A DNA stretch of 64,000 bases from an archaeon (lineage in GTDB: Archaea > Nanobdellota > Nanobdellia > Pacearchaeales > GW2011-AR1): assembly GCA_018697035.1 (NCBI GenBank), contig JABHSE010000004.1, positions 63,122-127,121 of the forward strand, in the 5' to 3' direction. A program made the translations under genes and the position numbers. The notes under the pieces were generated by a model. It did not search any database, was not told the origin of the DNA, and saw only the letters and a list, made by a program, of their open reading frames with translations. This document shows, in pieces, positions 7,690 through 59,537 of this stretch (position 1 is its first letter; each line of letters starts with the position of its first letter).

Positions 7690-8361
7690 TCAACGAGCAA
7701 AATATTTAGATATCATAGCAGTCTTCCTCGGAAACCGCCTCTTCAAATAAAACCCATATCCAAGCCCCACAATCAATCCGCCAAGATGTGCAGTATTACC
7801 AATCGGCAATCCAAGTCCAAGCGACAAAGCCCAAAGCCCAAACATTAAGAAACCCATCGCAGCCCACATCGGCATCGGAATCACAAAGAAAACCAAAACA
7901 GGAAGCCGCGGAGTCAAAACCGCAAGCAAGCCACCTAAAGCAAATATCGCACCACTCGCACCGACGGCATAAACATTCAAATCACTACCAGTCGCCAAAG
8001 CAATCAAAACAAAAAACAACCCAGCAAAAAGACCCCCAATAAAATACAAAGAAATAAACCGCTTCTTCCCAATCAACTTCTCAACAAAACTCCCAATAAA
8101 CATAAGGGAAACCATATTCACAAACAAATGCCCAATCCCAGCGTGCATAAACATACTCGTCAAAAAAGTCCAAACACCCCTCCCCTCCAAAATCATAGCA
8201 GGCATCAAAGCAATCCAAGAAACAATAAGGTCATCGCCAAAAAATCCCATCAAAATAAGAACACCAATAAACACGGCAACGTTTGCCGCAATCAAAGCAC
8301 TAGTATACGACAGATTCGAATCAAATCCTCCTCTTCTACGAGTCCCAATAGAATGATTCAT
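7690..8361 (-). CDS. rhomboid family intramembrane serine protease
   Basis: GASGAIFALGG (GxSG) and downstream HLGGLIVG histidine motif in a 6-TM protein. Confidence 0.85.
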   Translation of the reverse strand: MNHSIGTRRRGGFDSNLSYTSALIAANVAVFIGVLILMGFFGDDLIVSWIALMPAMILEGRGVWTFLTSMFMHAGIGHLFVNMVSLMFIGSFVEKLIGKKRFISLYFIGGLFAGLFFVLIALATGSDLNVYAVGASGAIFALGGLLAVLTPRLPVLVFFVIPMPMWAAMGFLMFGLWALSLGLGLPIGNTAHLGGLIVGLGYGFYLKRRFPRKTAMISKYFAR

Positions 8362-9254
8362 TATTTTCTCCCAGCAATTTTCTTTTTCAATTTACTAGCC
8401 AGACTAACCTTCTTTTTAACCACCTTCTTAACCTTCTTCTTGCCCGATGAAGCTGGAACCTTAGTTCCCTTTTTAGAGGGTATACTTTTACGTGTAACAG
8501 TAACCTTCTTCTTGACCTTCTTCACGACTTTCTTAACCTTCTTAACCTTCTTCTCAACCTTCTTCTTAACCTTCTTCACGACTTTCCCAGCAGCTTTCGC
8601 CTTAGCCTCCGCCACCTTCTTCCTTGCCGCAGCACGAATAATCTTCATCAATTCCTTCCTCTTAGCCTCCTCTTTATCCAACTTATTAGAAGCCCTCTTC
8701 CTAGCTATCTTCTTTTTCTTCTGAACAATTTCAAGCTCCTTTCTAATCATATCTACATTCCTATTTGTCCGAGTAATCCAGGTCTTAGCCTCACGTATCG
8801 GTCGACTATTATCACTCAATTCATAAATATCCGCACACTCTTCACAACTAAACCCATTCTCTAATGCCTTCTCCTCACTAACTTCAATATCACAGCTCTT
8901 ACAAACATAAAACCGCTTCGTTTCCCGACTATTCAAAACCCCCTCAAAATTAGCAATCTTCTTCATCAAAGAATTCTCCAACTTCATCAGACACTTCTCT
9001 GTATTCAATGTCCAATAATAAATATACCAACCCTTCCGCTTATCCTTCTTCCTAATAAACGAAACCAGATTATCAGCCGACAACTTATACAAAATATTCC
9101 GAACCTGATTGATCGTCAACTCCATCTTCTTCGCAATCAAAAACTCATTAACATCTTTCTTCTTAAACAAAATCTCCGCAATTCTCCCAGTATTCTCTCC
9201 GGCCATCTCTTCAATTAAATCGTGCAAAAGTTTAACCTGTAACATTACCATCAA
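8361..9254 (-). CDS. tfe: transcription factor E (TFE alpha) with long Lys-rich C-terminal tail
   Basis: N-terminal winged helix (INQVRNILYKL...), Zn-ribbon CKSC...CEEC, then a KKV-repeat tail. Confidence 0.8.
   Translation of the reverse strand: MMVMLQVKLLHDLIEEMAGENTGRIAEILFKKKDVNEFLIAKKMELTINQVRNILYKLSADNLVSFIRKKDKRKGWYIYYWTLNTEKCLMKLENSLMKKIANFEGVLNSRETKRFYVCKSCDIEVSEEKALENGFSCEECADIYELSDNSRPIREAKTWITRTNRNVDMIRKELEIVQKKKKIARKRASNKLDKEEAKRKELMKIIRAAARKKVAEAKAKAAGKVVKKVKKKVEKKVKKVKKVVKKVKKKVTVTRKSIPSKKGTKVPASSGKKKVKKVVKKKVSLASKLKKKIAGRK
8440..8495 (-). repeat. F1 in-frame repeat copy within the tfe tail
   Basis: ttgcccgatgaagctggaaccttagttccctttttagagggtatacttttacgtgt, translated as TRKSIPSKKGTKVPASSGK. 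Confidence 0.85.
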
Positions 9255-13427: not shown

Positions 13428-16361
13428 TCACTCTAAATAAATAGCAGCCATCCCCGGCTTCGCTTTCTTGGCTATATTCTTCGGATCAACCTTCCCAGAA
13501 TCATTCACGGCAAAAACTTCCACCTTCTTACCAACACCCTTAGAAATCTTCTTAGCATCAACATCCCCAATCTCAAACGGCATCACATAAACATAAACTC
13601 TTCTAGTATCCTCTTTAACAATTCCCTTAACTCTATCAATAATCTTAGAATTCAAATCCCCATTATCCTCATCTCCCAAAATCTTCTCCTCATCAACCTC
13701 AGGCCAAGCCGCAACAGAAACCAACCCCTCACCTCCCATCTTCTCCCAAAGCTCCTCCGCAATATGCGGACAAATAGGACTAAATAATTTCAAAAATTTA
13801 GAAGCAATATCCTTAGAACAACCACTACTCATCAAACCAAACAACTCCCGAAGCTCAATCGTCGCCTTCCGATATTTAAAGTTGCCATAATATTCCTCAA
13901 TATTCTTAACAGCCAAATTCAATCTAGAGACCAACTCATCAGAATCTTTCAAATTTTTACGAGAATCATAAAATCCATAAACCTTCCGAATAAATCTAGC
14001 ACTTCCAACAATCCCCTTTTCCGACCAATCAATATCCTTATCAGGAGAAGCCAACCCACTCAAGAAAAACCGCGCAGTATCAATTCCATACTTTCCAGAA
14101 ACAACTTCAGGCAAAACAACATTCCCAAGACTCTTACTCATCTTCCGCCCATCTTCAGCATGCAACATCCCCTGATGAAACAACTTACTAAACGGCTCGT
14201 CAAAATCAAGCACTCCAATATCCCGCAAGAACTTAACATAAAATCTACTGTAAAGCAAATGCATACAAGCATGCTCAGCTCCACCAATATAAACATCAAC
14301 CGGATTCCAAGCATTAACCTTCCTAGAGTCAAAAATCTTCTTAGAATTATCAGGGTCACAATACCTCAAAAAATACCAAGACGAATTAACAAACGTATCC
14401 ATAGTATCACTCTCTCGCCTACCAATCTTACCACACTTAGGACATTCAGCCTTCAACCATTCCTCATTACTCTCCAACGGATTCCCTTCACCAAACTTAA
14501 CATCCTTAGGCAACACAATAGGTAAATCTTTCTCAGGAACCGGAACAGCACCACAATCCTCACAGTAAACAATCGGAATCGGCGTCCCCCAATATCTCTG
14601 ACGACTAACTCCCCAATCCCTAAGTTTAAAATTAACAACCTCTTTTGCTTTATTACTTTCAGCCAACCAAGCAGCAATTTCCTTTTTAGCTTTTCCGCTA
14701 TTTATTCCATCAAAATCCCCAGAGTCAATCAAGACACCATCCCCAGTATGAACTTCCTTTCCATTATTATACCATTCCAACATCTCAGAAAGCTCAGCAA
14801 CAGGAGTCAACTTATCCAAGTCAGAAACAGAATTCCATTCAACCTCATGTTTTTCAGCTTCCTTATCGTCCAAATCTTTTTGAGTCTTACTAGTCAACCG
14901 AAAAACAAAAACACTAGAAAGAACAGACCTATTAACTTTTTTATGGGCAGCATAAAATAGAACATGCATTTTGTATGGCATCTCCTTAACCAACTCAAAA
15001 TTTTGATAACCAGTTTCTTCCTTAACTTCTCTAATGGCAGAATCAACCGCTTCTTCGCCTTCATCAATGCCACCAGTAACAGGAGTAAGCCACGGAAGTT
15101 TCTTATTCCTCAGAGCAATAAATTTATCACCTTTCTCATTTAAAACTATAGCATGTATAATGTCTCTCTCGGTATTTTCAGCATCCTTTCTGGGAGGATT
15201 CTCTTCATCAAGAAATGAAGGAGCAACAACCTGCCTAATCTCAATCCCATACTTAGTCGCAAAATCAAAATCCCTCTTATCATGCGCCGGAACCCCCATA
15301 ACCATTCCACTCCCATAATCAGCAATAACAAAATTCCCAATCCAAATCGGAACGCTCTCCCCATTCGCCGGATTCATGGCATAACTCCCACTAAAAACAC
15401 CCTCCTTATCAAGCTTCCCAATATCCTTCTCACTAGTCGACTTAATCTTCTTCAAAAACTTATCAACATCTTTCCTCTGCTTATCAGTCACCAACTCATC
15501 CAACCTATCGTGCCCAGCTGCAACAACCATAAAAGTAACCCCAAAGATAGTATCAGGCCGAGTCGTAAAAACCTTCCAGATATTCTTGCCCGAACCCCCG
15601 AACCCCCGAACCCCCGAACCACCTGAAATCTCGAAAGAGATTTCTGTCCCCTCACTCCGCCCAATCCAATTCCTCTGCATAGTCTTCGTCCTCTCCGGCC
15701 AATCAATCTTATCCAACCCCGCCAACAACTCATCAGCATACTCCGTCGTCTTGAAAAACCACTGCTTCAACTTCTTCACATGGACCTCCGTATCCTCATG
15801 CCTCCAACACTTCCCCTCGTTAACCTGCTCATTCGCAAGAACAGTATTACACTCAGGACACCAATTAACCGAAGCCTCCTTCTGATAAGCAAGTCCCTTC
15901 TCGAGCATCTTCAAAAAAATCCACTGGTCCCATTTGTAAAAATCAGGTGAAGCAGTATTAACCATTCGAGACCAATCATAACTAAGACCTAGCGCCTTCT
16001 GTTGGTTAACATAATTATCAATAGCGTCACTAGTATACTTCTCAGGATGAATCCCAGCCTTAATCGCAGCATTCTCCGCAGGCAAACCCAAGGCATCGAA
16101 CCCCATAGGATGAAGCACATTAAAACCCTGCATAATCTTAAACCGAGCCAAAATATCACCAATCGTATAATTCCAAGCATGCCCCATATGCAACCCAGTT
16201 CCACTCGGATATGGAAACATTTCTAAAACATAAAATGGTTCTTTCTTACTTTTAGCATCAACCTTGCCCGAAGCCGAGGGTACACCTTGAGTGCAAAAAG
16301 TCTTTTTAGCAGCCCACCTATCCTGCCACTTCCTCTCAATCCCAGCAAAATCTATATCCAT
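13428..16361 (-). CDS. leuS: leucine--tRNA ligase with internal Nudix-domain insertion
   Basis: HMGH (LHMGHAWNY) and KMSKS (RKMSKSLGN) class I signatures, CP1 editing motifs (VFTTRPDTIFG, GVPAHDKRDF), and a Nudix box GGIDEGEEAVDSAIREVKEETGY. Confidence 0.9.
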   Translation of the reverse strand: MDIDFAGIERKWQDRWAAKKTFCTQGVPSASGKVDAKSKKEPFYVLEMFPYPSGTGLHMGHAWNYTIGDILARFKIMQGFNVLHPMGFDALGLPAENAAIKAGIHPEKYTSDAIDNYVNQQKALGLSYDWSRMVNTASPDFYKWDQWIFLKMLEKGLAYQKEASVNWCPECNTVLANEQVNEGKCWRHEDTEVHVKKLKQWFFKTTEYADELLAGLDKIDWPERTKTMQRNWIGRSEGTEISFEISGGSGVRGFGGSGKNIWKVFTTRPDTIFGVTFMVVAAGHDRLDELVTDKQRKDVDKFLKKIKSTSEKDIGKLDKEGVFSGSYAMNPANGESVPIWIGNFVIADYGSGMVMGVPAHDKRDFDFATKYGIEIRQVVAPSFLDEENPPRKDAENTERDIIHAIVLNEKGDKFIALRNKKLPWLTPVTGGIDEGEEAVDSAIREVKEETGYQNFELVKEMPYKMHVLFYAAHKKVNRSVLSSVFVFRLTSKTQKDLDDKEAEKHEVEWNSVSDLDKLTPVAELSEMLEWYNNGKEVHTGDGVLIDSGDFDGINSGKAKKEIAAWLAESNKAKEVVNFKLRDWGVSRQRYWGTPIPIVYCEDCGAVPVPEKDLPIVLPKDVKFGEGNPLESNEEWLKAECPKCGKIGRRESDTMDTFVNSSWYFLRYCDPDNSKKIFDSRKVNAWNPVDVYIGGAEHACMHLLYSRFYVKFLRDIGVLDFDEPFSKLFHQGMLHAEDGRKMSKSLGNVVLPEVVSGKYGIDTARFFLSGLASPDKDIDWSEKGIVGSARFIRKVYGFYDSRKNLKDSDELVSRLNLAVKNIEEYYGNFKYRKATIELRELFGLMSSGCSKDIASKFLKLFSPICPHIAEELWEKMGGEGLVSVAAWPEVDEEKILGDEDNGDLNSKIIDRVKGIVKEDTRRVYVYVMPFEIGDVDAKKISKGVGKKVEVFAVNDSGKVDPKNIAKKAKPGMAAIYLE
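15589..15623 (-). repeat. in-frame 8-nt microsatellite (GGGGGTTC)x3, a G-quadruplex-type motif on the sense strand of leuS
   Basis: The plus strand reads cccgaacccccgaacccccgaacccccgaaccacc. The sense strand has G5-TTC-G5-TTC-G5-TTC-G3 and encodes GGSGVRGFGGSG. Confidence 0.8.
16264..16294 (-). repeat. short (hairpin-less) F1-related copy near the leuS 5' end
   Basis: ttgcccgaagccgagggtacaccttgagtgc keeps both F1 flanks (TTGCCCGA.., GAGGGTACAC..GTGC) and encodes TQGVPSASGK. Confidence 0.6.
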
Positions 16362-18063: not shown

Positions 18064-18131
18064 CTATATTTAATCTTAGCTCACCAGAGATACCTAAAGG
18101 GTTAAAAACCAAATCACTTTCACACCAATAC

Positions 18132-18292
18132 GCTCCGTTAGTCTAGTGGCCAAGGATGCCGCCCTCTCAAAGAGGTGGAAAGCCCTCGTCGGTGAGACAA
18201 CGGCTTTATGTTCGCTTGAACAACCACTTGAATCTCTCCTGAGATTCTTTTGGAGAACGGCGGTGACCCGGGTTCAAATCCCGGACGGAGCG
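18132..18292 (+). tRNA. tRNA-Glu(CUC) with a roughly 88-nt intron at the canonical anticodon-loop position
   Basis: Hand fold: acceptor GCTCCGT/ACGGAGC, D arm GTCT-AGTGGCCAA-GGAT, anticodon stem CCGCC/GGCGG, loop CTCTCA.., T arm CCGGG-TTCAAAT-CCCGG. The intron is about 18170-18257, with BHB-like pairing CTCT/GGAG. Confidence 0.8.
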
Positions 18293-18429: not shown

Positions 18430-20667
18430 TTATTCCTCATCCCCAAACTCCCCAACAATCTCCAAAATCTTCTCTCCATACTTCATCAACTTCTCAGGCC
18501 CAATCCCCGAAACCTTCATCAACTCCTCAGCGTCCTTAGGCATCCTCTCCGCAATCTCATCAATAGTAGCATTAGACAAAACAACAAACGCTGAAACCCC
18601 ACGCTCACTACTAACAACCGCCCTCCAGCTCTTCAATTCCCCAACCAAGCCTTCATCAACATCAGCAGCCTTACCCCCAACCCCCAACTCCAAACCCCCA
18701 ACCAGTCTTCTCATCTCCGCAGTAATATAATAAGTCGCCTTCTTAGTATGCGTCACAATCAACTCTTCCTTCGCCCGAGAAACCGCAACATAAAACAACC
18801 TCCTCTCCTCTTCCTCCCTGTCATAATCATCCATCTTCACCATCTCGACCGCAGGGTGATCCGTCGCCTTACACGGAAAATTGGACTCATTGGCCCCAAT
18901 CACAAAAACCTTTTTCGCCTCCAGCCCCTTAATCGCATGAACAGTGGCAAGAGTAACACCTTCCACATTATCACCATTGACTTTCTTCCCCGCCGACTCA
19001 TCTGCCCGAACAACATGAACAATCCCCCTCGCTGTCATAGCCCTAGACAACTCTAACAATATCTTATTAGTCCGAGCCAAAACAAAAATATTATTCAACC
19101 CAACATCAGAATCCTCAATCTCCCTCAAAACAAAATCACGTTCCGCATCCTCATTAGAAAAATCCTCAATCCTAATCTTCGCCTCACCTTCAAGATGTCC
19201 CTCTAAATCAGGCAACTTCATATCCCGAATAGCATGGTTCATAAAATCAACCACTCCCCCAAAACTCCGATAATTCTTCTTCAAATGAATAATCTCAATA
19301 CCTTTTTCGTTAGGTCCGCGTCCATCCGCGTCCATCCGCGGTTCATTTTTTCCCTTTCCAAAATCATCCTCAAAATTAAGAATATAATTTACATCACTCC
19401 CCCTCCATCCAAAAATAGACTGCCGTGGATCACCAACTGCAAAAAGATTGCCCAATAAAGACGGCACATCAGTGCCCATTTTAGAGGGTACACTATTACG
19501 TGTGGCTTCTAAAAGCAACCCAATCAACTCAATCTGCATCGCATTAACATCCTGATACTCATCAACCAAAACATGCTCAAGCCTAGGTATACCATCCGGA
19601 TTATCTTTAAAAAATTTAATAGCGTCAATAATCTGGTCACTATAATCCCGCAACCCCTGCGTCTCCATATGCTCCTTCAAATATTTCGTAATTCGGTAAA
19701 TCCTCTCCGCATTAACCCGTTCTTTCCCGTCAACATCCCGAGTCCAATCATAATCAGTCTTACCACTCACTTTAAAATAATCCATCACAGCAAAACAATC
19801 ATTCATAAAAGCATTAGACAACTGACTCGCCGTTCGAAACTTCTTCTGTCCCGCACTAAAATACTCATCAACAATCTGCTCCATATCCAACCCCAGCGTC
19901 GCCAAAGCCATATTCATCGCCAAAATCTTATCACTATAACTCTGCACCCGAACCTGCCTACCATAAATCTTAGCACCGTGCCTCTGCAAAATCCTCTCAC
20001 AAAACGAATTAAAAGTGTGAACCTTAACACCAACAACACCCAACTCCCCCAACCTCCTCTCCATCTCCATCCTTGCCTTCCGCGTAAAAGTAATAGCCAA
20101 AATCTTCGAGGCATCAACCCCTCGATGCTTAACCAAAAACTCAATCCTCTTAGTCAAAACTGTCGTCTTCCCACTTCCAGCTCCAGCAACACAAAGCAAA
20201 TTTTTAGCATCCGAAACAATTGCCTTCTTCTGCTCATCATTATACATCTCCAAAAAATCCCCATACTTCTCAAACCTAACCCTATCATCCCCATTAACTT
20301 TGCTCTCCCCAAAATCAACACGATTCCCCAACCTTTTCGCCTCAAGCGTCGGACGCGTAATCTCATTCCTCCCACGAATAGTCAAACTCATAACCTTAAC
20401 AAACCGATTATAATCACTCTGAATCATCTCAATCATTCCATTCGAAATCAACCTATCAATCTCTCCCGCAACCTTACCTCTATCCCAACTCAAACTGTCA
20501 AAATTATCCAACTCATCCAACCGACTTTTACTAATCGACTTGTTAGAATAATCCCCAGTCAAAAAATCAATCAACAAATTCCGTCCCACCTGAAACGGCA
20601 ACTCCATCAAGGCCCTCAATATATGTGTGTATTTCAAATCCTCTTCCATCACGCAAAAAACAAACAC
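18430..20667 (-). CDS. UvrD/PcrA-family DNA helicase with N-terminal wHTH-like and C-terminal HhH/HRDC-like regions (start may be MEEDLKY at 20649)
   Basis: Walker A AGAGSGKTTVL, VDEYQDVN, GDPRQSIFGWRGS, VTLATVHAIKGLE. Confidence 0.85.
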   Translation of the reverse strand: MFVFCVMEEDLKYTHILRALMELPFQVGRNLLIDFLTGDYSNKSISKSRLDELDNFDSLSWDRGKVAGEIDRLISNGMIEMIQSDYNRFVKVMSLTIRGRNEITRPTLEAKRLGNRVDFGESKVNGDDRVRFEKYGDFLEMYNDEQKKAIVSDAKNLLCVAGAGSGKTTVLTKRIEFLVKHRGVDASKILAITFTRKARMEMERRLGELGVVGVKVHTFNSFCERILQRHGAKIYGRQVRVQSYSDKILAMNMALATLGLDMEQIVDEYFSAGQKKFRTASQLSNAFMNDCFAVMDYFKVSGKTDYDWTRDVDGKERVNAERIYRITKYLKEHMETQGLRDYSDQIIDAIKFFKDNPDGIPRLEHVLVDEYQDVNAMQIELIGLLLEATRNSVPSKMGTDVPSLLGNLFAVGDPRQSIFGWRGSDVNYILNFEDDFGKGKNEPRMDADGRGPNEKGIEIIHLKKNYRSFGGVVDFMNHAIRDMKLPDLEGHLEGEAKIRIEDFSNEDAERDFVLREIEDSDVGLNNIFVLARTNKILLELSRAMTARGIVHVVRADESAGKKVNGDNVEGVTLATVHAIKGLEAKKVFVIGANESNFPCKATDHPAVEMVKMDDYDREEEERRLFYVAVSRAKEELIVTHTKKATYYITAEMRRLVGGLELGVGGKAADVDEGLVGELKSWRAVVSSERGVSAFVVLSNATIDEIAERMPKDAEELMKVSGIGPEKLMKYGEKILEIVGEFGDEE
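18679..18704 (-). repeat. F2 G-rich in-frame repeat copy in the helicase gene
   Basis: aacccccaactccaaacccccaacca is 25 of 26 nt identical to 6689-6714 and is read as LVGGLELGV. Confidence 0.8.
19448..19503 (-). repeat. F1 in-frame repeat copy in the helicase gene
   Basis: ttgcccaataaagacggcacatcagtgcccattttagagggtacactattacgtgt encodes TRNSVPSKMGTDVPSLLG. It sits between the VDEYQD box and NLFAVGDPRQS. Confidence 0.85.
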
Positions 20668-23219: not shown

Positions 23220-23288
23220 TTTATTAACCTGCCCATAATAACAATAATCTAAAAAAATAAACTAGGAATAAATTCCTAATAATATAAC

Positions 23289-24329
23289 CTAAGGATAAGC
23301 CATAGCAGCAACATAGTCATCCACAGGAGCAGGTTCAGCCATAGCAGGAGCAACATAGTCATCCACAGGAGCAGGTTCAGCCATAGCAGGAGCAACAGGC
23401 TCAATCATAGGAATAACAGGTTCAACCACAGGAGCAACATAGTCATCCATAACAGGTTCAACCACAGGAACATCCGTCTGAATATTAGCTCCCATAAGAT
23501 TTATCACTTGACTCTCAAGTTGACTAATTCGACTCTCAAGTTGACTAATTCTAATTTCCCAGTCACTAACAGAATCACTATTACCGTCAATAGCGGGATT
23601 ATACATCGCCACATTTCCGGTAGCAACATCATCCAAAGTCCCAGATTCAAAAACAGAATTTTTCCCCGCCTGAATTTTCTCATTAACTTCATTACTCAAA
23701 CTCAAAAAAGTTTCATAAGATATCTCTAAATTCCCAGTCTTTTCTATATCAGCACCACTTGATTGAAGGTTCTTACGAGCACGTGCATATATCTGCTCAA
23801 CACGATCCTTATGATTATTAAACTCACTTTGAATTTCGGCAATCTTTTTTAAGCCATTACTGGAACCATTATCAATCTTACCAGGTTTAATGCCTTCAAT
23901 GATCGTCATAACCTCAGCAATGAGTTTCTCATATTTCTTTTGCATTTTCATATAAGCTTCACTATCCTCATTAACTAATATCTCAGCTTCAGACAACATT
24001 TTCTCTGCCCTACCTAAGACTTGCTTAACTTTTTTCTCTTTATTAAAAGTAAACAAAGACTGTAAGCGATCTGCATTGTTTTCAAAAAATCCGATTTTCC
24101 TAGCTTCACCTATGTCACCAATCTCCCCAGGGACAACATAATCAGCAACAGGAGCAACATCATCCATAGCAACAGGAGCAACGTCACCCACAGCAGGCTC
24201 AACATAATCAGCAACAGGAGGAACATAGTTATCCATAGCAACAGGAGCAACATCATCCACAGCTACAACAAGACCAGAAACTCCAAGCATTAAAATCATC
24301 CCCAAAAACAAATTAATTATTTTATTCAT
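23289..24329 (-). CDS. secreted repeat protein, paralog of 24475..25569
   Basis: Signal peptide, shared core ARKIGFFE..DRL...FTFNKEKK, and APV/DDYV repeats at both ends. Confidence 0.6.
   Translation of the reverse strand: MNKIINLFLGMILMLGVSGLVVAVDDVAPVAMDNYVPPVADYVEPAVGDVAPVAMDDVAPVADYVVPGEIGDIGEARKIGFFENNADRLQSLFTFNKEKKVKQVLGRAEKMLSEAEILVNEDSEAYMKMQKKYEKLIAEVMTIIEGIKPGKIDNGSSNGLKKIAEIQSEFNNHKDRVEQIYARARKNLQSSGADIEKTGNLEISYETFLSLSNEVNEKIQAGKNSVFESGTLDDVATGNVAMYNPAIDGNSDSVSDWEIRISQLESRISQLESQVINLMGANIQTDVPVVEPVMDDYVAPVVEPVIPMIEPVAPAMAEPAPVDDYVAPAMAEPAPVDDYVAAMAYP
23301..23395. repeat. tandem repeat with a unit of about 42 bp inside 23289..24329
   Basis: catagcaggagcaacatagtcatccacaggagcaggttcagc is repeated and encodes the duplicated APAMAEPAPVDDYVA. 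Confidence 0.8.
23510..23551. repeat. perfect 21-bp tandem duplication inside 23289..24329
   Basis: gactctcaagttgactaattc x2, encoding RISQLES x2. Confidence 0.9.
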
Positions 24330-32145: not shown

Positions 32146-32749
32146 GAGTTCTAACTTCCATCATTTCACCATGTCCAGGCACGATAAAATCAGCCAACTC
32201 CAAAATCTTCCGCCGACTCTCCTCATAAGCATCCATATCAGCAGTAATCATCTCAATTTCCCTTTCTTCCAAATCAGTCAACCGAGGAACCCTGATAGCA
32301 TCACCAGCAACAACCACAACACCTTTTTCAGTATCAACGACAACGGACATCATATCAAGGGTATGACCAGGCGTAAAAATAACTCGAACATCCCTTGCTA
32401 TCTCAGGATTATCAATAAGATTTCCTCTCTCCAAAAAACCTTTATTCAAGGTCTGAACCTGCCCAGGATATTCGCCTCCAGCAAACTTCAACATAATCTT
32501 TGCCCCGTTAAACAAATGAACATTCGTAGTATGATCAATATGGGTATGGGTAAGAATAATAATATCTATATCTTCAGGAGAAAGACCTTCTCCCTTTAGG
32601 GCATCTAAGAGCTTCTTTTCATTAGCAAAAGATCCAGGATCAACCAGAATATTTTTATCACTTTTGATTAAAGTCGAAGTAGAGCCTATCAAAAACCCTC
32701 CTTCAGTCGCCTCATGCTTCCCATTAACCAAAACCTTCACTTCCGCCAA
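32114..32749 (-). CDS. MBL-fold metallo-hydrolase
   Basis: THTHIDH (HxHxDH) motif and downstream TPGHT. Confidence 0.8.
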   Translation of the reverse strand: MAEVKVLVNGKHEATEGGFLIGSTSTLIKSDKNILVDPGSFANEKKLLDALKGEGLSPEDIDIIILTHTHIDHTTNVHLFNGAKIMLKFAGGEYPGQVQTLNKGFLERGNLIDNPEIARDVRVIFTPGHTLDMMSVVVDTEKGVVVVAGDAIRVPRLTDLEEREIEMITADMDAYEESRRKILELADFIVPGHGEMMEVRTHEKICSDILC

Positions 32750-34347
32750 ACCCTCATCTCTCGCAATTTATTCAAATCATTCTTATACATCTCTCTCAAA
32801 TCATCAATCCCAAAAAAATTCATAATAACCCTATCAAACCCAGGACCCCAAGCCAAAACAGGAACATGCTTCCCAAACATCGGAATCGTCACCTCAGGCC
32901 GAAACATCCCAGCTCCACCAAGTTCCAACCATTTTTGTTTCCCCTCGTGCCAAACATCAATCTCCAATGACGGCTCGGTATACGCAAAATAAGCCGGTCT
33001 CCACCTAAGTTTCTCATAACCCATCTTCCCAAAAAACTGCTTCAAATAACCAAGCAGCTGAACAAAATTCGCATTCTCATCTACAACAATCCCCTCAGTC
33101 TGATTAAATTCGAAACCATGCGACCAATCCACAGTCTCATTCCTAAAACATTTCCCAAGTGCAAAATACTTCGCCGGAAACTCTCCACTCTTCCCAATCT
33201 CCATAATCTTCCGAGCAGACAAACAAGTCGTATGCGTTCTAAGCAAAACTTTCTTAGCATCTTCCTCATCCCACTTCTGCTGCCATCCCTTACTTCCATC
33301 AACCCCACCCTCATGCGCCTTAGCAACATTCTCCAAAACCTTCTTTACTCCCAACTCCGAACTCCCAACTCCTGACTTCGACCTCAAATTTTTGAGGTAG
33401 AACGTATCCTGCATCTCACGAACCGGATGATCCTGCGCCGTAAATAAAGAATCAAAAACCCAAAACCCACTCTCAACCATATTCCCCTTCATCTCCTTAA
33501 ATCCCATCTCCAACCAAATCGACTTAGCATAATCCGTAGCCTGATTCACAAAATGCCTCTTCCCACCATACAACCTTGGCACAGGCGCATTCAAATCATA
33601 ACGCCGAAACTTCTTTCCCTTCCAACTCGTCCCCTTCAACATCTTTGGCGTCAAAGCCTCCAACATCTCCCCACCCAAGTCCATCCCATAAATCTTCAAA
33701 CCCAAATCACTCAACTTCACATTAACAATCTTCTCCTCAATAACCTCAACAATATCTTTCCTTTTCTTCAAATTTGCCAAAGCCAACAGATCTAAGTCCT
33801 TAACCTCATCTAAAGCAACAGGCAACTTCTCTATGAAAACCTCCTCAATACTCTTCTTTGAAACCTCACTACCGCCCGACAATTTCAATTTCCCCTTATC
33901 AATCTCAACCAAACCCTTCCCTTTCAAAACACCAAGCGCAACCTTCGCCTCATTCTCATTCAAACCACAAACATTCCTAATCTCACCAATCGGAATAACT
34001 TTGCCCGATGAAGCCGGAACTTCTTCAGAAGTTCCCAATTTAGAGGGTACACTATTACGTGCATCAGATAACTTATTGAGCAATGCCCGCTCAGGCAATT
34101 CCTTCTTTAAATAATTAATCCCCAAAATTCCCAAATCAACCCTCTTCACCTCATTAGTCTCAGAAACAACCAAACCCTTCTTTTCCAACAACCCAACAGC
34201 CCGCAACACAGTGGTTTTATCTAAATTACTTTTTTCAGCAACAACCCCAACTTCTAAATCTTCCTTGCTTAACTTAGGCAAAACATCGCGCTCCATAGGC
34301 GACAAAGACTCAATAATCAACTTCTCATCCATATCAACCCCAATCAT
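32737..34347 (-). CDS. pheS: phenylalanine--tRNA ligase alpha subunit (archaeal type)
   Basis: N-terminal tandem wHTH repeats and a class II core (FRRY.., LLRTHTT, GKCFRNE, GAGMFRPEV). Confidence 0.9.
   Translation of the reverse strand: MIGVDMDEKLIIESLSPMERDVLPKLSKEDLEVGVVAEKSNLDKTTVLRAVGLLEKKGLVVSETNEVKRVDLGILGINYLKKELPERALLNKLSDARNSVPSKLGTSEEVPASSGKVIPIGEIRNVCGLNENEAKVALGVLKGKGLVEIDKGKLKLSGGSEVSKKSIEEVFIEKLPVALDEVKDLDLLALANLKKRKDIVEVIEEKIVNVKLSDLGLKIYGMDLGGEMLEALTPKMLKGTSWKGKKFRRYDLNAPVPRLYGGKRHFVNQATDYAKSIWLEMGFKEMKGNMVESGFWVFDSLFTAQDHPVREMQDTFYLKNLRSKSGVGSSELGVKKVLENVAKAHEGGVDGSKGWQQKWDEEDAKKVLLRTHTTCLSARKIMEIGKSGEFPAKYFALGKCFRNETVDWSHGFEFNQTEGIVVDENANFVQLLGYLKQFFGKMGYEKLRWRPAYFAYTEPSLEIDVWHEGKQKWLELGGAGMFRPEVTIPMFGKHVPVLAWGPGFDRVIMNFFGIDDLREMYKNDLNKLREMRVWRK
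33348..33372 (-). repeat. F2-related GGAGTTGGG tandem motif in pheS
   Basis: ctcccaactccgaactcccaactcc encodes GVGSSELGV. Confidence 0.55.
34001..34062 (-). repeat. F1 in-frame repeat copy in pheS
   Basis: ttgcccgatgaagccggaacttcttcagaagttcccaatttagagggtacactattacgtgc encodes ARNSVPSKLGTSEEVPASSGK. Confidence 0.9.
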
Positions 34348-36624: not shown

Positions 36625-37290
36625 TTAGAACACAACACAATCTCGAATCTCACTCGAACTCATCCCAACCGTCTCCCCAAACGCCTTCCGCCCCTTCTCA
36701 TCAACAACACCATCCTTATCCAAAACCAAACTAGCAATCTTAATAGAACATCCAACTTTCCGACAAACCTTCACATTCTGAATAATCTTAGCAATCCTCA
36801 TAGCTTTTTCTTTCCCACATAAAGAAGCAATATCTCCAAAATCAACAACAATACTCACACCTTTGCCCGATGAAGATGGAACTTTCCCAGAAGTTCCCAA
36901 TTTAGAGGGTACACTATTACGTGTCGCCGCCATCTTCGCAACAACATGATTCAACCCCGAATCCCTCTGCTTCAAATTATCAAACTTAGTCAAAGCCTCA
37001 ACCGAAACCAGATAATCAATCTTCAAACTCTCAATCACTCTCCGATTAAAAGCATCATCCCCACCAAAAATCCCAACCTTACCCTTAAATCCTTTATCTC
37101 TAAGCGACGCAATAATACTCCTAGCCATCTTTTCATTGGAACGAATCAAAAATCCATCACAACCGGGGTCAGCAGAGTCATGCCCAATTGGGGCCATATC
37201 ATTCAAATCATCCTTACTAGAAACCTCTCTAAGATAAACAGAATCCTTACAACGAAACAAATTCAAATCTTTCATAACAACCCAAACCAA
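36625..37290 (-). CDS. rnp3: RNase P protein component 3 (Rpp30 homolog)
   Basis: TIM-barrel-like pattern with DSGLNHVVAKMAA...GVSIVVDF...IQNVKVCRKVGCSIKIAS, colinear with archaeal Rpp30. Confidence 0.7.
   Translation of the reverse strand: MVWVVMKDLNLFRCKDSVYLREVSSKDDLNDMAPIGHDSADPGCDGFLIRSNEKMARSIIASLRDKGFKGKVGIFGGDDAFNRRVIESLKIDYLVSVEALTKFDNLKQRDSGLNHVVAKMAATRNSVPSKLGTSGKVPSSSGKGVSIVVDFGDIASLCGKEKAMRIAKIIQNVKVCRKVGCSIKIASLVLDKDGVVDEKGRKAFGETVGMSSSEIRDCVVF
36863..36924 (-). repeat. F1 in-frame repeat copy in rnp3
   Basis: ttgcccgatgaagatggaactttcccagaagttcccaatttagagggtacactattacgtgt encodes TRNSVPSKLGTSGKVPSSSGK. About 56 of 62 nt are identical to the pheS copy by manual alignment. Confidence 0.9.
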
Positions 37291-44987: not shown

Positions 44988-44994
44988 CTAATAT

Positions 44995-45240
44995 AAAAAA
45001 ACCCAATCATCGCAAACCTTTTACTTCACCAGAAGTACCTACTGGGTAAACCAAACCAAAATACGTTTAAAAAAACCCAATCATCGCAAACCTTTTACTT
45101 CACCAGAAGTACCTACTGGGTAAACCAAACCAAAATACGTTTAAAAGAATCCCATCGCAAACCTTTTACTTCACCAGAAGTACCTACTGGGTAAACCAAA
45201 CCAAAATACGTTTAAAAGAATCCCATCGCAAACCTTTTAA
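44995..45240. repeat. 3.3 tandem copies of a 74/71-bp unit immediately upstream of rpo7
   Basis: The phase marker cgcaaaccttttac recurs at 45011, 45085, 45156 and 45227. The last, partial unit ends in aaccttttaaacc, about 20 nt before the ATG. Confidence 0.9.
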
Positions 45241-45262: not shown

Positions 45263-45856
45263 ATGTTCTCTATAGTAAAAGTAACAGATCACGTAAGAGT
45301 CGAACCAAACAAATTCGGCATGGATACAGACGCGGCAGTCAGAGCTCAGTTAGAAGAATCCTACTCTGGTTTCCAAGACAAAGACATTGGAACGGTAGTC
45401 GCAGTTCTCGACGTCAAAGAAGTCAAAGAAGGCATCATAATCCCAGGCGACGGCGCAGCATATTACGAATCAACATTCAAATTAATCGTATTCAGACCAG
45501 AACTACAAGAACTAGTCTACGGAACAATAGAAGAAATCACAAACTTCGGAGCCTTCATATCAATGGGCCCAATCCGAGGCATGATCCACATCTCACAAAC
45601 AATGGACGACTTCGTATCATTCTCAGATTCAGGAGTCCTAACAGGAAAAGACGGGAAAAAGAATCTAGTCCAAGGAGACAAATGTATCGCACGAATCGTG
45701 GCAATATCATACAAAGGTGAGGAACCAAAAATCGGGCTAACAATGAGGCAACCAGGTCTAGGAAAATTAGATTGGATTAAAGCAGAAAAAGAAAAAACAG
45801 ATGCGATTGCAAAACAAGCACTAGCTCTTGAAAACAAAAAGGAGAAGAAGAAATAA
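45263..45856 (+). CDS. rpo7: DNA-directed RNA polymerase subunit Rpo7 (E')
   Basis: Typical N-terminus (V.VEPNKFG) and a C-terminal S1 domain (GAFISMGPIRGMIHISQ). Confidence 0.9.
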   Translation: MFSIVKVTDHVRVEPNKFGMDTDAAVRAQLEESYSGFQDKDIGTVVAVLDVKEVKEGIIIPGDGAAYYESTFKLIVFRPELQELVYGTIEEITNFGAFISMGPIRGMIHISQTMDDFVSFSDSGVLTGKDGKKNLVQGDKCIARIVAISYKGEEPKIGLTMRQPGLGKLDWIKAEKEKTDAIAKQALALENKKEKKK

Positions 45857-48205: not shown

Positions 48206-49366
48206 TTATTTTTTATTTTTTTCCAAAATCTCTTTTTGAGAAAACATCTCCTCAACCCCACTCCCCATATCCCGAACCTTAAACTCACCCTTAGCAACCT
48301 CATCCGCCCCAACAAAAACAACCTTCCCAATCCCTTTAGAATCAGCATACTCCAATCCCTTCCCAATCGCCTTATCCATCAACAACACCGTCCGAATTCC
48401 CTCTCCCCTCAACCTCTCCGCCAAATCAACCGCCTCCACATCACAACCAAGCGACAAAACCAAAACATCAACAGCACTCCCTTCAATTTTCGACAACAAA
48501 CTAATCGGCTCAAACCCAAGCGCAATACCAAAAGCCTGAACATCATCAACCATATAAGCCCCACCTCCAGCAAGAGAAACCCCCAACTCATCACTCCAAA
48601 TCTCAACCACAGTCCCATTATAATACGAAAGTCCCCTAGCCAAAAAAGGCCGAAACTCCGGCGTCACACCATACATCTTACAAAGCTTCTTCAACTCTTT
48701 AATTTCACCATAAAACTTATACTTCTCAAAATCCTTCCCAGTGAAAATCTTCAACACCCTCTCGCAACCAATGCTCTTCAAATTATCAGCAACATCCTTC
48801 ACCGACAACTTATCCAACTTATCAATCTCACGAATCGCCTGATCTCTAACTTTCTCATCAACTCCCTCGCTAACCAGAATCTCATTAATCAACCTACGAT
48901 TATTAAAGTAAATCTTAACCGGCATCTCAAGCTTCTCAAAAATACCAGACATCATCTTCAAACACTCAGCCTCATCCTTCATGCTCGAACCAACAACATC
49001 CGCATCCGCCTGAGTAAACTCCCGACTCCTCCCTTTCCGAATCGCCTCATCTCGAAAAACACTTCCAATCTGAAACCTCTTATACGGCAACTTCTGATTC
49101 TTCGCCAACCTCTTCAACTGAAACGTAAACTCAAACCTCAACGCCAACTTCCGCTTTCCCCTATCACTCAAACGGAAAACATCCCGAACAGCCTCGTCGT
49201 TAGCATTATCCCCAACAACAAAATCCTCTCTCTCAATAATCGGGCTCTCCGCAATCTCAAAACCATAAGTCTCAAACTCTCTCTGAATAATCCCCCGAAT
49301 CACCGCACGCTTCGCCGCCTCAGCCCCGACAAATTCATTAAACCCCTTAACTATTCTCGAACTCAT
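48206..49366 (-). CDS. HisRS paralog 1 (class II HisRS fold plus anticodon-binding domain; motif 3 Arg not conserved)
   Basis: FRDEAIRKGRSREFTQADADVVG (motif 2), ARGLSYYNG, GGGAY, but GIALGFEPI where HisRS normally has G.GleR. Confidence 0.8.
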   Translation of the reverse strand: MSSRIVKGFNEFVGAEAAKRAVIRGIIQREFETYGFEIAESPIIEREDFVVGDNANDEAVRDVFRLSDRGKRKLALRFEFTFQLKRLAKNQKLPYKRFQIGSVFRDEAIRKGRSREFTQADADVVGSSMKDEAECLKMMSGIFEKLEMPVKIYFNNRRLINEILVSEGVDEKVRDQAIREIDKLDKLSVKDVADNLKSIGCERVLKIFTGKDFEKYKFYGEIKELKKLCKMYGVTPEFRPFLARGLSYYNGTVVEIWSDELGVSLAGGGAYMVDDVQAFGIALGFEPISLLSKIEGSAVDVLVLSLGCDVEAVDLAERLRGEGIRTVLLMDKAIGKGLEYADSKGIGKVVFVGADEVAKGEFKVRDMGSGVEEMFSQKEILEKNKK

Positions 49367-49636
49367 CTACTTCCTCCCTTTCTCAAGTTTAATAATTCTC
49401 CGCTTCAACTTCTCAATCTCAACCTTATTATTAATATCAAAAACCCACTCAATAAACAAAACTCCAGGAAAAACAATCACGAGAGTAAATATTAGTCCAC
49501 TCAAAGTCAGCCTCCGAACTTCCTCAAAAGCCAAGTCGAAAAATATCCCATGAATAATAGCCCCAACCGAAACCAATACAGAAAAAACCAACAATATCAA
49601 AATCTGCTTCCTCATTAAACCAATCGATTTAACCAT
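49367..49636 (-). CDS. small membrane protein
   Basis: 89-aa ORF with two TM segments. Confidence 0.45.
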   Translation of the reverse strand: MVKSIGLMRKQILILLVFSVLVSVGAIIHGIFFDLAFEEVRRLTLSGLIFTLVIVFPGVLFIEWVFDINNKVEIEKLKRRIIKLEKGRK

Positions 49637-50177
49637 TTCGCTCTCCCAAATACTCCTTCAACTTCCCAAATGCAATCTTCCTCATACTAAACTCATTCTT
49701 CTTCTCCAAACTCATCTCCCCAAAAGTCTTATCACTTCCCTCAGGCAAAAACATCTTATCCCAACCAAAACCGTTCTCTCCCCGAGGCGCAACAATATCT
49801 CCTTTAACATTCCCTTCAAAAAACACAACACTATCCCCATCACTATACCCAATCAAAGTCTTAGCAACAGCCGACCCATCATCATATCTACCAACCAAAT
49901 CCGCAATTCCCTCAACCTTCAAACTATCTAAAAACCATTTAATCAAAGGCCCAGGCAAACCATTCAAACAATTAATATAAACCGAAGTATCCTCAACAAT
50001 AAACTCGCCCTTATTATGCTTCAAAGCCTCATCCAACTTAGCCTCAATAATCTTCCTAGCATCAATCTCCTGAATCTCTGGCAAATCCAAATCAATCTGC
50101 TCCACATTATCAATAATACTCCGCGCCTCTAAAAACTTCCCCTCATTCCCAGTTATAAAATAAAGTTTCTTCCCCAT
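49629..50177 (-). CDS. non-canonical purine NTP pyrophosphatase (HAM1/RdgB/ITPase)
   Basis: YFITGNEGKF..E, ...EDTS..., FGWD motifs. Confidence 0.85.
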   Translation of the reverse strand: MGKKLYFITGNEGKFLEARSIIDNVEQIDLDLPEIQEIDARKIIEAKLDEALKHNKGEFIVEDTSVYINCLNGLPGPLIKWFLDSLKVEGIADLVGRYDDGSAVAKTLIGYSDGDSVVFFEGNVKGDIVAPRGENGFGWDKMFLPEGSDKTFGEMSLEKKNEFSMRKIAFGKLKEYLGERNG

Positions 50178-50257
50178 GCAACATCAAAAAAACCACACTT
50201 TAAATCATTTACCCAAACACCCTTAAACCAAAACCAACAACCAATCTAGCCGCCCGC

Positions 50258-50316
50258 GGATTATATTGCTAATGCGCGATATAATCCAACAGCTTTGCAG
50301 GGATTAATTTCCCTGC
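50258..50316. other. two adjacent strong hairpins upstream of tRNA-His
   Basis: GGATTATAT-12nt-ATATAATCC (50258-50287) and TGCAGGGA-loop-TCCCTGCA (50296-50316). Confidence 0.6.
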
Positions 50317-50382
50317 ATTATACTCTTTCAATAAATTTAAAAGACAAAACCTCATTCCTATATTACCACATTTGGTAACAAT

Positions 50383-50454
50383 GACGGTTGTAGTTCAATG
50401 GTAGAATGTATGGTTGTGGTCCATGAGACGCGGGTTCGATTCCCGCCTTCCGTC
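50383..50454 (+). tRNA. tRNA-His(GUG) copy 1, with encoded G-1
   Basis: G-ACGGTTG-TA-GTTC-AATGGTA-GAAT-G-TATGG-TTGTGGT-CCATG-AGAC-GCGGG-TTCGATT-CCCGC-CTTCCGT-C. T-T oppositions at 5:68 and 6:67. Confidence 0.8.
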
Positions 50455-50534
50455 CTTTTTCTAGAATTGAATGAAGTTCGATTGAAGACATTTCAATGTC
50501 GAATGCCCGCAGGCCAAGCCTTCCGTCTAAAACC

Positions 50535-51361: not shown

Positions 51362-51685
51362 TTAAGCCGTCTCTTCAGGAGTCTCAGCTTCAACCGCAGG
51401 TGCAGCCTCAACCGGAGCCTCTTCAGATTCAACCTCAGCTGGTGCTTCTTCAGCAACAGGAGCTTCCGCTTCAACAGCAGGGGCTTCCGCAACCTCAGGA
51501 ACAGCTTCTTCAGCTACAGGAGCTTCAACTTCAGCAGGGGCTTCTTCTACAGGAGCCTCAACCTCAGGAGCAGCTTCTTCTTCAGCAGCAGGTTCCTCAG
51601 CAGCTTCTTCTACAGGAGATTCCACAGATTCCACAACAGGTGCGTCCTCAATAGTCTCCTCAGGAGTTACGTTTTCTTCTTCCAT
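51362..51685 (-). CDS. low-complexity acidic E/A/P/V-rich protein (uncertain)
   Basis: 107-aa ORF. The region is open in several frames on both strands, so coding status is unclear. Confidence 0.3.
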   Translation of the reverse strand: MEEENVTPEETIEDAPVVESVESPVEEAAEEPAAEEEAAPEVEAPVEEAPAEVEAPVAEEAVPEVAEAPAVEAEAPVAEEAPAEVESEEAPVEAAPAVEAETPEETA

Positions 51686-54059: not shown

Positions 54060-55241
54060 CTAATGATAATGAGGATGCTCAGAAGTCTCTGCACATTTAT
54101 CATTCACAACATCCATCTCCAAAACACTCTCGTCCCCACTAACCATATCCTTCACCTTAAACACCCCACTCTCAACTTCCTGTTTCCCAACAAAAACCAC
54201 CTTCCCAAACTCATACGCATTAGCATACCCAAGCGCCTTACTAGGTTTACCATAATTCACAGAAACAATCTTACCCTGCTCCCTAAGTTTTTGAGCCAAT
54301 TTAATAGCAACATCATCTTCTCCCAAAGACACAATCAAAAATTTATCTTGAACACTCTTGAGCTTAGCAATCAAAAACAACCTATCCAATCCCATAGAAA
54401 TTCCCGTACACTGAACGTCGTTGAAAATATAACTTCCACCTCCAGTAATCGTTTCCTTAATACCCTCACCCTTAATCTCAAACACAGAACCGTTATAATA
54501 ACTAAGTCCCCTAATCGTCGTCGGTGAAAAAACAATCCGAAGCCCATACTTCTTACAATAATTAATCAACTCAAGCACTTCTTTATACGACTCAAATTTT
54601 TCAAAGTAATCTTCACCCTCATTAAACCTATCAATAATTCCCTCAACCCCAAAAGGCCTAAGGTTATCCCGCAACTCATCCTCAGGCAATTTATCAAACT
54701 TATCAATCTCACGCATAACCTGGTCCCTGTCTTTATCATCCACACCAAAGTCTTCCAAGATTTCATTCATAAGTTTACGGTTATTAATCAGCACAGTCGG
54801 AGTAATTCCAATACCCCTCAAAATCTCAGACACAACCACAAGAGTCTCAGCCTCGTCCTTAACAGTAGAACCCACAGTATCAATATCACACTGCACAAAC
54901 TGCCTAACCCGATTCCCCGAAACTGGCTCATCTCTAAAGACCGGTCCAACAGCAAACCTCTTGTAAGGAAGTTTCTTTCCCTGCATCAATCGCTTTAAAG
55001 GAAAAGTCATTTCATATCTAAGCGCCAAGTCCCTATCTCCCTTATCCTTCAATCTAAAAATATCCGAAACCGCTTCATCATCAGTATTATCTCCCTGAAC
55101 AAACTGCCTACTTTCAATTATAGGAGTGTCCACAGGAGAATACCCATACCTAGTAAAAGTATCAACAATAATTTTCCTTATAGCCTCTCGCTTAATCGCA
55201 TCTTCGCCTTCATAATCCTTAAATCCCTTAACAGTATCCAT
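54060..55241 (-). CDS. hisS: histidine--tRNA ligase (paralog 2; start trimmed to MDTVKGF)
   Basis: Motif 2 FRDEPVSGNRVRQFVQCDIDTVG, IRGLSYYNG, GGGSY, motif 3 GISMGLDRL, and an anticodon-binding domain. The track N-terminal extension overlaps a tRNA. Confidence 0.85.
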   Translation of the reverse strand: MDTVKGFKDYEGEDAIKREAIRKIIVDTFTRYGYSPVDTPIIESRQFVQGDNTDDEAVSDIFRLKDKGDRDLALRYEMTFPLKRLMQGKKLPYKRFAVGPVFRDEPVSGNRVRQFVQCDIDTVGSTVKDEAETLVVVSEILRGIGITPTVLINNRKLMNEILEDFGVDDKDRDQVMREIDKFDKLPEDELRDNLRPFGVEGIIDRFNEGEDYFEKFESYKEVLELINYCKKYGLRIVFSPTTIRGLSYYNGSVFEIKGEGIKETITGGGSYIFNDVQCTGISMGLDRLFLIAKLKSVQDKFLIVSLGEDDVAIKLAQKLREQGKIVSVNYGKPSKALGYANAYEFGKVVFVGKQEVESGVFKVKDMVSGDESVLEMDVVNDKCAETSEHPHYH

Positions 55242-55253
55242 CTTGTCCTCCAA

Positions 55254-59407: not shown

Positions 59408-59537
59408 ATTGAACCAGTATGTTTTAGGTTTATAAGAATTGTTGTGATATAAAGCAGTTCAAAAGTAAAATATGATTTTCTGTTACGAGTGTTCTCAACA
59501 CAAACTTTAAAAGTAAAAATCAATCTACTAAACACAT

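Follow-up and report, generated by a model that had tools for sequence, protein, structure and literature searches.

An in-frame hairpin repeat in protein-coding genes of DPANN archaea that resembles the Rickettsia palindromic elements

Introduction

Short mobile inserts that form hairpins are known from coding regions of compact genomes, where they are sometimes in frame. They include the GC clusters, double-hairpin elements and byps of fungal mitochondria. The ribosome skips byps, which are not required to be in frame, and all of these fungal inserts belong to eukaryotic organelles. The Rickettsia palindromic elements (RPEs), found in an alphaproteobacterium, are about 100–150 bp long and fall in families 1–10 according to the summary of Ogata et al. 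(2000) given in PMC10969869. The repetitive extragenic palindromic sequences (REPs) lie outside genes, frequently form inverted doublets and are marked by GTAG or CGTC tags (PMC3733652). Here we describe a short hairpin-bearing repeat that lies in frame within genes of DPANN archaea. It was recognized in a stretch of 64,000 nucleotides from a member of the Pacearchaeales (lineage GW2011-AR1; assembly GCA_018697035.1, contig JABHSE010000004.1, positions 63,122 to 127,121), named here the window. The starting point was a sequence-only reading which noted that the copy lying in the core of a helicase gene had exchanged a base in both arms of its hairpin.

Materials and Methods

Copies in the window were identified by repeat search, by pattern matching and by scanning with a covariance model, its filters being switched off. 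Genome and metagenome collections were scanned with an exact pattern of 19 specified bases from the 5′ block of the element, yielding at least 9 and at least 34 loci, respectively. Further copies were gathered through homologues of the host proteins and their contigs. Because the search pattern fixes the 5′ block, conservation was judged only at unforced positions and in copies found through proteins. Pairing was studied in an alignment of 41 distinct copies, which were taken from the window itself and from DPANN contigs of genomic or metagenomic origin.

Copies in the Window

The window carries four intact copies and one decayed copy of a 57–63 nt element (Table 1). All lie on the minus strand and are read in one common frame. 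No chance match to the intact-copy pattern is expected in shuffled window sequence, and the helicase copy scores 81.3 bits (E 1e-15) with the covariance model. Re-reading of the sequence confirmed the central stems previously described in the TFE, rnp3, pheS and helicase copies. Among the gene labels given at that time, Pfam or NCBIfam confirms those of TFE, the PheS alpha chain and the UvrD/PcrA-type helicase, and also that of the leucyl-tRNA synthetase (LeuRS) that hosts the decayed copy. The label rnp3 has only a weak NCBIfam match (E 7e-9, under the curated cut-off) and no Pfam match. The LeuRS remnant lost its hairpin and 24 nt but still keeps the frame. Full copies occupy the LeuRS N-terminal site in locus L027 and in L017/L043. 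At the homologous site the LeuRS of L049 has ESSGK (TCTTCAGGCAAG), perhaps the footprint of a copy that has decayed further. The density of the element is uneven, the five copies being all found between 8 and 37 kb of the window, with no regular spacing.

Table 1. Coordinates of the element copies in the window and of the helicase gene in which the hairpin change was noted.
Feature	Position	Strand	Description
TFE copy	8439–8495	−	In Lys-rich C-terminal tail of TFE (ORF 8361–9254); stem GGAAC/GTTCC, 5 bp; peptide TRKSIPSKKGTKVPASSGK
LeuRS remnant	16263–16294	−	Near LeuRS N-terminus (ORF 13428–16361); GCACTCAAGGTGTACCCTCGGCTTCGGGCAAG; peptide CTQGVPSASGK
Host helicase	18430–20667	−	UvrD/PcrA-type superfamily 1 helicase with C-terminal HRDC domain
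Helicase copy	19447–19503	−	Coding strand ACACGTAATAGTGTACCCTCTAAAATGGGCACTGATGTGCCGTCTTTATTGGGCAAT; peptide TRNSVPSKMGTDVPSLLGN; 54-nt unit 19450–19503
Helicase-copy central hairpin	19463–19476	−	GGCAC-TGAT-GTGCC on coding strand; 5 bp, 4-nt loop
PheS copy	34000–34062	−	63 nt, in phenylalanyl-tRNA synthetase alpha chain (ORF 32737–34347); 8-bp stem GGAACTTC/GAAGTTCC; peptide ARNSVPSKLGTSEEVPASSGK
Rnp3-like copy	36862–36924	−	63 nt, in ORF 36625–37290; 7-bp stem GGAACTT/AAGTTCC
ORF, open reading frame.

Distribution and Organization of the Element

The searches identified about 45 loci beyond the window in several DPANN lineages, with at least 35 distinct coding sites. Named genome records carrying the element are all DPANN (Candidatus Pacearchaeota, Candidatus Woesearchaeota, Nanoarchaeota and unclassified “archaeon”). 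Antarctic lake and groundwater samples are among the sources of the loci. Two metagenome loci (L028 and L040) are chance matches to the pattern; every other match is a complete element with its 3′ block, a part that the pattern leaves unspecified. Three frames are open in the coding copies and all are read in the same one; their length is always a multiple of three and they contain no stop codon. Many copies sit at the N- or C-terminus of the protein. The coding-strand consensus is RCA CGT AAT AGT GTA CCC TCT AAA NTG GGN NCT NNN GNN CCN NCT TCA TCG GGC (AAR), which encodes the hydrophilic peptide (A/T)RNSVPSK-G-T-x-V-P-x-SSG(K). From 5′ to 3′ it is composed of a short palindrome, the conserved ACCCTCTAAA block, a central hairpin of 5–8 bp that is free in sequence but maintained in pairing, and the conserved CTTCATCGGGCAA block. 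The unit has 54 nt (18 codons) and reaches 60–63 nt in long-stem forms. Two subfamilies share the conserved blocks: v2, which has the consensus form, and v1, which starts with GCC RCA CGY GGC ATA CCC TCT..., encodes AARGIPSK... and predominates at the helicase site.

Direct dimers with a period of 54 nt, or of 60 nt when built from long-stem units, are present in L008 (1689–1799), L045 (11147–11266), L053 (8589–8702) and P0150. The junction TCGGTC|GCACGT recurs in the dimers of L008, L045 and L053. In L019 (119–199) a short derivative devoid of the hairpin is nested in the loop of a full copy. The only copy outside ORFs, 59 nt long, is intergenic in L006 (6887–6945), where it is out of frame and antisense to its neighbors and bears a 5-bp stem of another sequence; it sits in a 417-nt spacer with inverted GC skew.

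Searches at the protein level were little informative, the motif being too short for an estimate of abundance: a query of concatenated peptides returned only 8 small proteins, and a profile search of 1.84 billion representative sequences only 15. The pattern scan of viral contigs gave 17 loci, among which the sole weak covariance-model match was an ordinary terminator, while a second pattern, too short, gave chance matches only. Neither the element nor its sequence was found described in the searchable literature.

The Central Hairpin and Its Covariation

In the helicase copy the third stem pair is C:G whereas it is A:T in most copies (GGCAC/GTGCC versus GGAAC/GTTCC). The two-armed change reported in the sequence-only reading is thus present, with pairing retained. 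Its synonymous nature holds as well: the hairpin is read in frame as GGC ACT GAT GTG CCG (G T D V P), the exchanges Gly GGA to GGC and Val GTT to GTG being both at the third codon position. This is the only stem pair whose two partners are wobble positions. A single 5-bp hairpin is not significant by itself (fold z-scores of −0.3 to −2.05), and the case for the structure therefore rests on its fixed position in the repeat family and on covariation.

A covariation test on an enlarged set of copies had been proposed as a check. In the 41-copy alignment 96.8% of the stem cells form standard pairs, and two-sided changes account for 27 cells distributed over four stem pairs. The observed covariation score was reached by none of 500 shuffles (0/500). 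Sliding the 3′ partner by one to three columns drops pairing to 24–55%. At the wobble/wobble pair the counts are AU 22, CG 13, GC 3, UA 1 and UG 1, so that all four pair types are used and 95% of the copies are Watson-Crick, compared to the 42% expected from column compositions. Nine perfectly complementary stems were found (GGAAC/GTTCC, GGCAC/GTGCC, GGGAC/GTCCC, GGCGC/GCGCC, GGAGC/GCTCC, GGTGC/GCACC, GGATC/GATCC, GGAAA/TTTCC and GCAAT/ATTGC), together with four imperfect stems that resemble intermediates. Pairs 4 and 5 co-vary through non-synonymous changes: GT.VP becomes GA.AP, GS.DP or GN.FP, i.e., Thr/Val is replaced by Ala/Ala, Ser/Asp or Asn/Phe. Only one of 205 core stem cells is a G.U pair, and the loops are not stable RNA tetraloops. 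In the 63-nt forms both arms are lengthened symmetrically by 3 nt, an extension that would be explained most easily by one event acting on a palindrome at the DNA level.

Stem length (5–8 bp) and loop vary while the flanks are conserved, as had been noticed in the window copies. The single-stranded flanks are even more conserved than the stem itself. The proposal that a nucleic-acid hairpin has a role, rather than the peptide only, is supported: stem changes are compensated in the larger set and, as shown below, codon usage does not explain the codons chosen. A purely peptide explanation is ruled out because the wobble/wobble pair stays Watson-Crick and because pairs 4 and 5 co-vary through amino acid changes. 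Covariation does not separate selection for the hairpin from mechanical self-correction of a palindrome by template switching, nor does it tell whether DNA or RNA is the relevant molecule.

Codon Usage and Conservation at the Nucleotide Level

Codon preference had been named as a possible trivial origin of the Gly and Val codons of the helicase stem. It does not account for them: in the genes of the window no Gly codon is rarer than GGC (7%), and GTG represents 17% of the Val codons. Rare codons make up a large part of the element (CGT 9%, GTA 8%, CCC 7%, GGC 7%), whose C content is 24%, versus 12% for the coding strand. Four-fold degenerate positions of the 3′ block (45, 48, 51 and 54) are invariant in 31–33 of 33 copies; the adjacent positions 43–44, which are first and second codon positions, vary freely. 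Among the six helicase alleles found through their protein, synonymous variation at codons of conserved amino acids affects 1 of 9 in the element versus 15 of 24 in the flank (Fisher p = 0.017). Since synonymous sites that the search did not force are near-fixed, the sequence of the element is either under constraint as nucleic acid or re-copied again and again.

The Helicase Insertion Loop

The insert was originally placed between the VDEYQD box (19549–19566) and NLFAVGDPRQS (19417–19449), and this position is correct. It covers residues 389–406 and is preceded by motif II (DEYQD, 369–373) and followed by motif III (GDPRQS, 412–417). It is absent from 109 of 120 helicase orthologues, in which exactly 20 residues separate DEYQD from GDPRQS and a loop of three residues is found at the insert position. 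The other 11 orthologues carry the element at this site, two as dimers and one in truncated form (P0005). Comparison with the PcrA and UvrD structures shows a 16-residue gap exactly at TRNSVPSKMGTDVPSL. A surface loop had been anticipated, and the AlphaFold2 model agrees: residues 391–404 are predicted as a loop with a predicted local distance difference test (pLDDT) score below 50, against a model mean of 80.9, flanked by a helix (376–391) and a strand (407–412). According to this model the insert is a disordered loop in a region where the fold accommodates it.

Site Occupancy and Insertion History

The element is found at three different sites in orthologous helicases and at two in PheS. The second helicase site lies after KVSG (P0004/L049, P0023 and P0092/L002) and the third is occupied in P0088/L053. 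At PheS site A an 8-residue spacer is present in 85 of 85 alignable orthologues; among the top 120 matches only the window protein and P0166 have the insert there, and the DNA scan added L007 and L032. The insert is the derived state, because the short spacer is invariant in the 109 helicase and 85 PheS orthologues. Random deletion is an unlikely source of the empty sites because the empty state is always equal in length.

Across lineages, the copies at the first helicase site have in common that they are of the v1 type, follow a GCC codon and mostly have a GGCAC stem, which points to a shared origin combined with lateral spread or with precise loss. The window copy reads GCC followed by a v2 unit, the product expected from collapse of a v1–v2 dimer of the type seen in L045. 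A TCGGG-type homology to the 3′ end of the element itself is found directly upstream of the insert at three sites (L002/L049, L005 and L027) where about 0.17 were expected (P about 7e-4). At helicase site 2 this homology is supplied by the native S-G-K codons. Such junctions hint at homology-assisted copying.

Origin and Maintenance of the Copies

Our preferred explanation, with a probability of roughly 0.55, is that the element is an RPE-like archaeal repeat, namely DNA that moves or copies itself, with a hairpin that is important as nucleic acid and a peptide that is a tolerated passenger. A 54-nt unit would have been inserted many times, in a single frame, in protein-coding genes of Pacearchaeota, Woesearchaeota and Nanoarchaeota. 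The DNA would propagate or copy itself, and copies would persist only where the disordered peptide comes to lie at an end of the protein or in a loop that tolerates it. The hairpin would act as nucleic acid, most probably in the form of single-stranded DNA that folds while the element is copied or inserted; it might serve as the recognition structure of a mobilizing enzyme or provoke template switching or microhomology-mediated copying. DNA is weakly favored over RNA because stems are near-purely Watson-Crick, loops are not stable RNA tetraloops, arms extend symmetrically, and hairpin-deleted and nested derivatives exist. Decay and rearrangement are those of a repeat, as exemplified by the internal deletion in LeuRS, the truncated helicase P0005, the dimers and the nested L019 derivative.

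Several observations weigh against this reading. The element has no terminal inverted repeats, its 5′ end RCACGTAAT not matching the reverse complement of its 3′ end TTGCCCGAT, and the flanks of about 35 sites show neither a consistent target-site duplication nor a conserved target motif. No transposase or HUH enzyme was found in the 20 window ORFs scanned or in the Pfam annotations of about 170 kb of related loci. Copies are absent from the 20 kb outside the window ends in the same genome (10 kb on each side), and about 100 kb of related genomes have none outside the helicase gene. No recent presence/absence polymorphism was observed, the sole near-identical strain (99.3%) carrying the same copies. 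Helicases with the insert are scattered over the neighbor-joining tree, each beside empty relatives, and the same holds for PheS; this occupancy would need site preference, lateral transfer of alleles or repeated precise loss. Finally, copies at orthologous sites keep their synonymous sites across lineages whose proteins are only 60–80% identical, which a purely selfish, decaying insert would not do unless re-copied or gene-converted. An autonomous relative with matching ends and a transposase was not present among the loci examined, in which no search aimed at gapped ends was made, and the only recombinase found in the window and related loci is a phage-type integrase in an unrelated island (see below).

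The element might also be an actively maintained archaeal type embedded in ORFs rather than a passive RPE-like remnant. Its structured DNA or RNA module (5′ palindrome, conserved loop strands and co-varying hairpin) would be recognized by a dedicated DPANN enzyme or RNA-binding protein that leads to site-specific re-insertion or precise excision, or to continuing gene conversion. This extension is tentative, at about one chance in four. It would account for the fixation of rare codons across Pacearchaeota and Woesearchaeota, the repeated occupancy of the helicase (11/120) and PheS loops, and the recurrent v1–v2 dimers.

The conservation of synonymous sites and rare C-ending codons at orthologous sites over divergent lineages could alternatively reflect a signal of the host: a folded DNA or RNA bound by a cellular factor and kept by purifying selection, the insertion history being secondary. 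Conservation is highest in ACCCTCTAAA and CTTCATCGGGC, which coincide exactly with the two strands on either side of the hairpin and are common to both subfamilies. In the sense mRNA, CCC/GGG could close a hairpin that has the two conserved 9-nt strands in its loop; in the most concrete version of a host signal, the antisense blocks read as a C-stem, a 3-nt bulge and tandem G.A/A.G, a kink-turn consensus (CCC-GAU-GA... / ...A-GA-GGG) that could bind L7Ae, and four of the non-Watson-Crick cells are G.U in the antisense strand (L009, L049, L041 and L024) versus two in the sense. This consensus is nevertheless low in information and was noticed post hoc, and several copies with no other damage, among them the window helicase copy (TTATTGGG), have a mutation at its critical G (sense position 47). 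Rfam gives no match to the helicase copy or to the L006 copy even at E 10. The near-purely Watson-Crick stems and the lack of stable tetraloops speak against an RNA, and most orthologues do without the element, whose copies are not regularly spaced in the window. We consider a host signal rather unlikely, but a serious rival on account of the synonymous-site conservation. Self-correction of the palindrome without selection, in which intrastrand template switching copies a change of one arm into the other and covariation is a mutational by-product, fits the almost exclusive occurrence of perfect Watson-Crick stems with few intermediates, the symmetric 3 + 3 nt extensions of the 63-nt variants and the hairpin-deleted derivatives. 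It leaves unexplained why the flanks are more conserved than the stem, why nearly all copies have a stem of at least 5 bp, and why four imperfect stems persist. As the full account of the data it is improbable, and it is compatible with a self-copying repeat rather than an alternative to it.

The two remaining explanations concern the gene product. The 18–21-residue peptide might be selected as a linker, a short linear motif or a modification site, with an incidental inverted repeat. All coding copies use a single frame, the peptide is well conserved outside the hairpin (ARNSVPSK...SSSGK, AARGIPSK...), and four of the five stem pairs follow from the G-T...V-P codons, those of Gly and Pro (GGN/NCC) and of Thr and Val (ACN/NGT) being reverse complements. 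The peptide-free wobble/wobble pair nevertheless stays paired in four types, amino acids change in a coordinated manner at pairs 4 and 5, synonymous sites are fixed on rare codons, and the out-of-frame intergenic copy retains a hairpin. These facts largely refute a peptide module, to which we attach very little weight. Location of the inserts within conserved cores of essential genes could also mean that the segment is removed or skipped during expression, as a bulge-helix-bulge intron or by translational bypass. DPANN archaea have splicing endonucleases of broad specificity. Manual threading found no 4-bp helix with flanking 3-nt bulges and no complementary 4-mers beside the hairpin; no matching take-off and landing codons for a bypass were found, and a removed segment would need neither a length multiple of three nor coding copies free of stops. 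This explanation is hardly credible.

Genome Context

Between positions 1 and 60000 the window has a GC skew of −0.2 to −0.5 and nearly all genes are on the minus strand. The coding strand of the window is composed of 27.5% G and 11.6% C, and C-ending codons represent 1–14% of each synonymous family. The segment 59517–64000 (L192 7911–21296) differs by its low GC content (32%) and reversed skew and carries no copy of the element. It starts with a tRNA-like 65-nt repeat (59517–59581, 74% identical to 18111–18175) and a phage-type integrase gene (59657–60889). Its end, seen in the longer contig, is close to a second integrase gene, and a ParE-like toxin is encoded within it. This segment is probably an integrated element.

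Other features are found among the genes of the window. An Rfam tRNA match on the plus strand extends over 161 nt (18132–18292), implying a long intron, and is not called by ARAGORN. LeuRS (13428–16361, minus strand) has an inserted NUDIX domain after its editing domain (residues 402–530), an architecture shared by L049 and L050. Two diverged paralogues of histidyl-tRNA synthetase (48206–50455 and 54060–55326; DNA segments about 71% identical, repeat families D8, D9 and D19) are each near a tRNA-His gene. Three tandem 74-nt units, two identical and the third 86% identical to them, lie at 44994–45212 just upstream of an Rpb7-like gene (45263–45856). Low-complexity coding repeats with periods of 9–24 nt are found at 23284–24287, 51430–51606 and 8380–8609 (repeat families D1–D3, D5 and D6). 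One of them is the KKV-rich tail of TFE that hosts a copy of the element.

Significance

If our preferred explanation is true, the element would be the first archaeal counterpart of the RPEs, a selfish or semi-domesticated DNA in essential genes of a genome-reduced symbiont. It would offer an independent system to study how ultra-compact genomes tolerate or use in-frame insertions, in which the compensatory evolution of the hairpin gives direct access to the mechanism. The annotation of DPANN assemblies and phylogenomics are also concerned, as the element adds 18–42 spurious residues to DPANN marker proteins (aminoacyl-tRNA synthetases, Kae1, TFE and ribosome-associated proteins). Recurrent sites and fixed synonymous sites, with no visible transposase, hint at an undescribed copying or maintenance mechanism in these archaea. 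The chance that the way in which the element is maintained is novel in its own right is moderate.

Comparison with Known Elements

Several known classes were compared with the element. Classical miniature inverted-repeat transposable elements are likewise miniature, multi-copy, devoid of coding capacity and found at different genomic sites; assignment to them is ruled out by the missing terminal inverted repeats and fixed-length target-site duplication, and no parent insertion sequence (IS) was identified among the loci examined. The target of a diversity-generating retroelement does not fit because variation lacks adenine specificity and is concentrated in the loop and the stem pairs, and no reverse transcriptase is encoded in the window ORFs scanned. 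Hand threading led to rejection of a canonical box C/D sRNA, an H/ACA RNA and a hammerhead; the ACA of v2 is missing from v1. The antisense strand, which fits the kink-turn core, has no D′/C′ boxes and UAGA in place of CUGA. The fungal mitochondrial inserts are GC-rich, unlike the element.

The resemblance is closer with REPs and REPINs, mobilized by RAYT (an HUH Y1 transposase), and with palindromic elements derived from IS200/IS605. Like these, the element is small and non-autonomous, has an imperfect hairpin with a co-varying stem and conserved bases next to it, lacks terminal inverted repeats and target-site duplication, persists for long and is conserved in sequence within a genome. It differs from REPs by being intragenic and translated, by its direct dimers, and by the absence of a GTAG or CGTC tag beside the stem. 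No RAYT, TnpA or Y1 transposase was found in about 230 kb of annotated DPANN sequence (20 window ORFs and related loci). A pairing of the IS608 type between guide and cleavage site has no covariation support: positions 25–26 vary while the 3′ end is constant.

The RPEs provide the closest parallel. In both cases short sequences with palindromic potential are present as many in-frame copies in unrelated housekeeping genes of a reduced-genome symbiont, the conserved peptide is placed where the fold tolerates it, and no transposase is known. The archaeal element, of 54–63 nt, is found only in DPANN contigs and has no sequence relationship to RPEs. Unlike them it has a discrete hairpin of 5–8 bp with explicit compensatory evolution, two subfamilies, recurrent direct dimers, and the same sites recurring in scattered lineages. 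The element functions like an RPE but is not a member of the RPE families.

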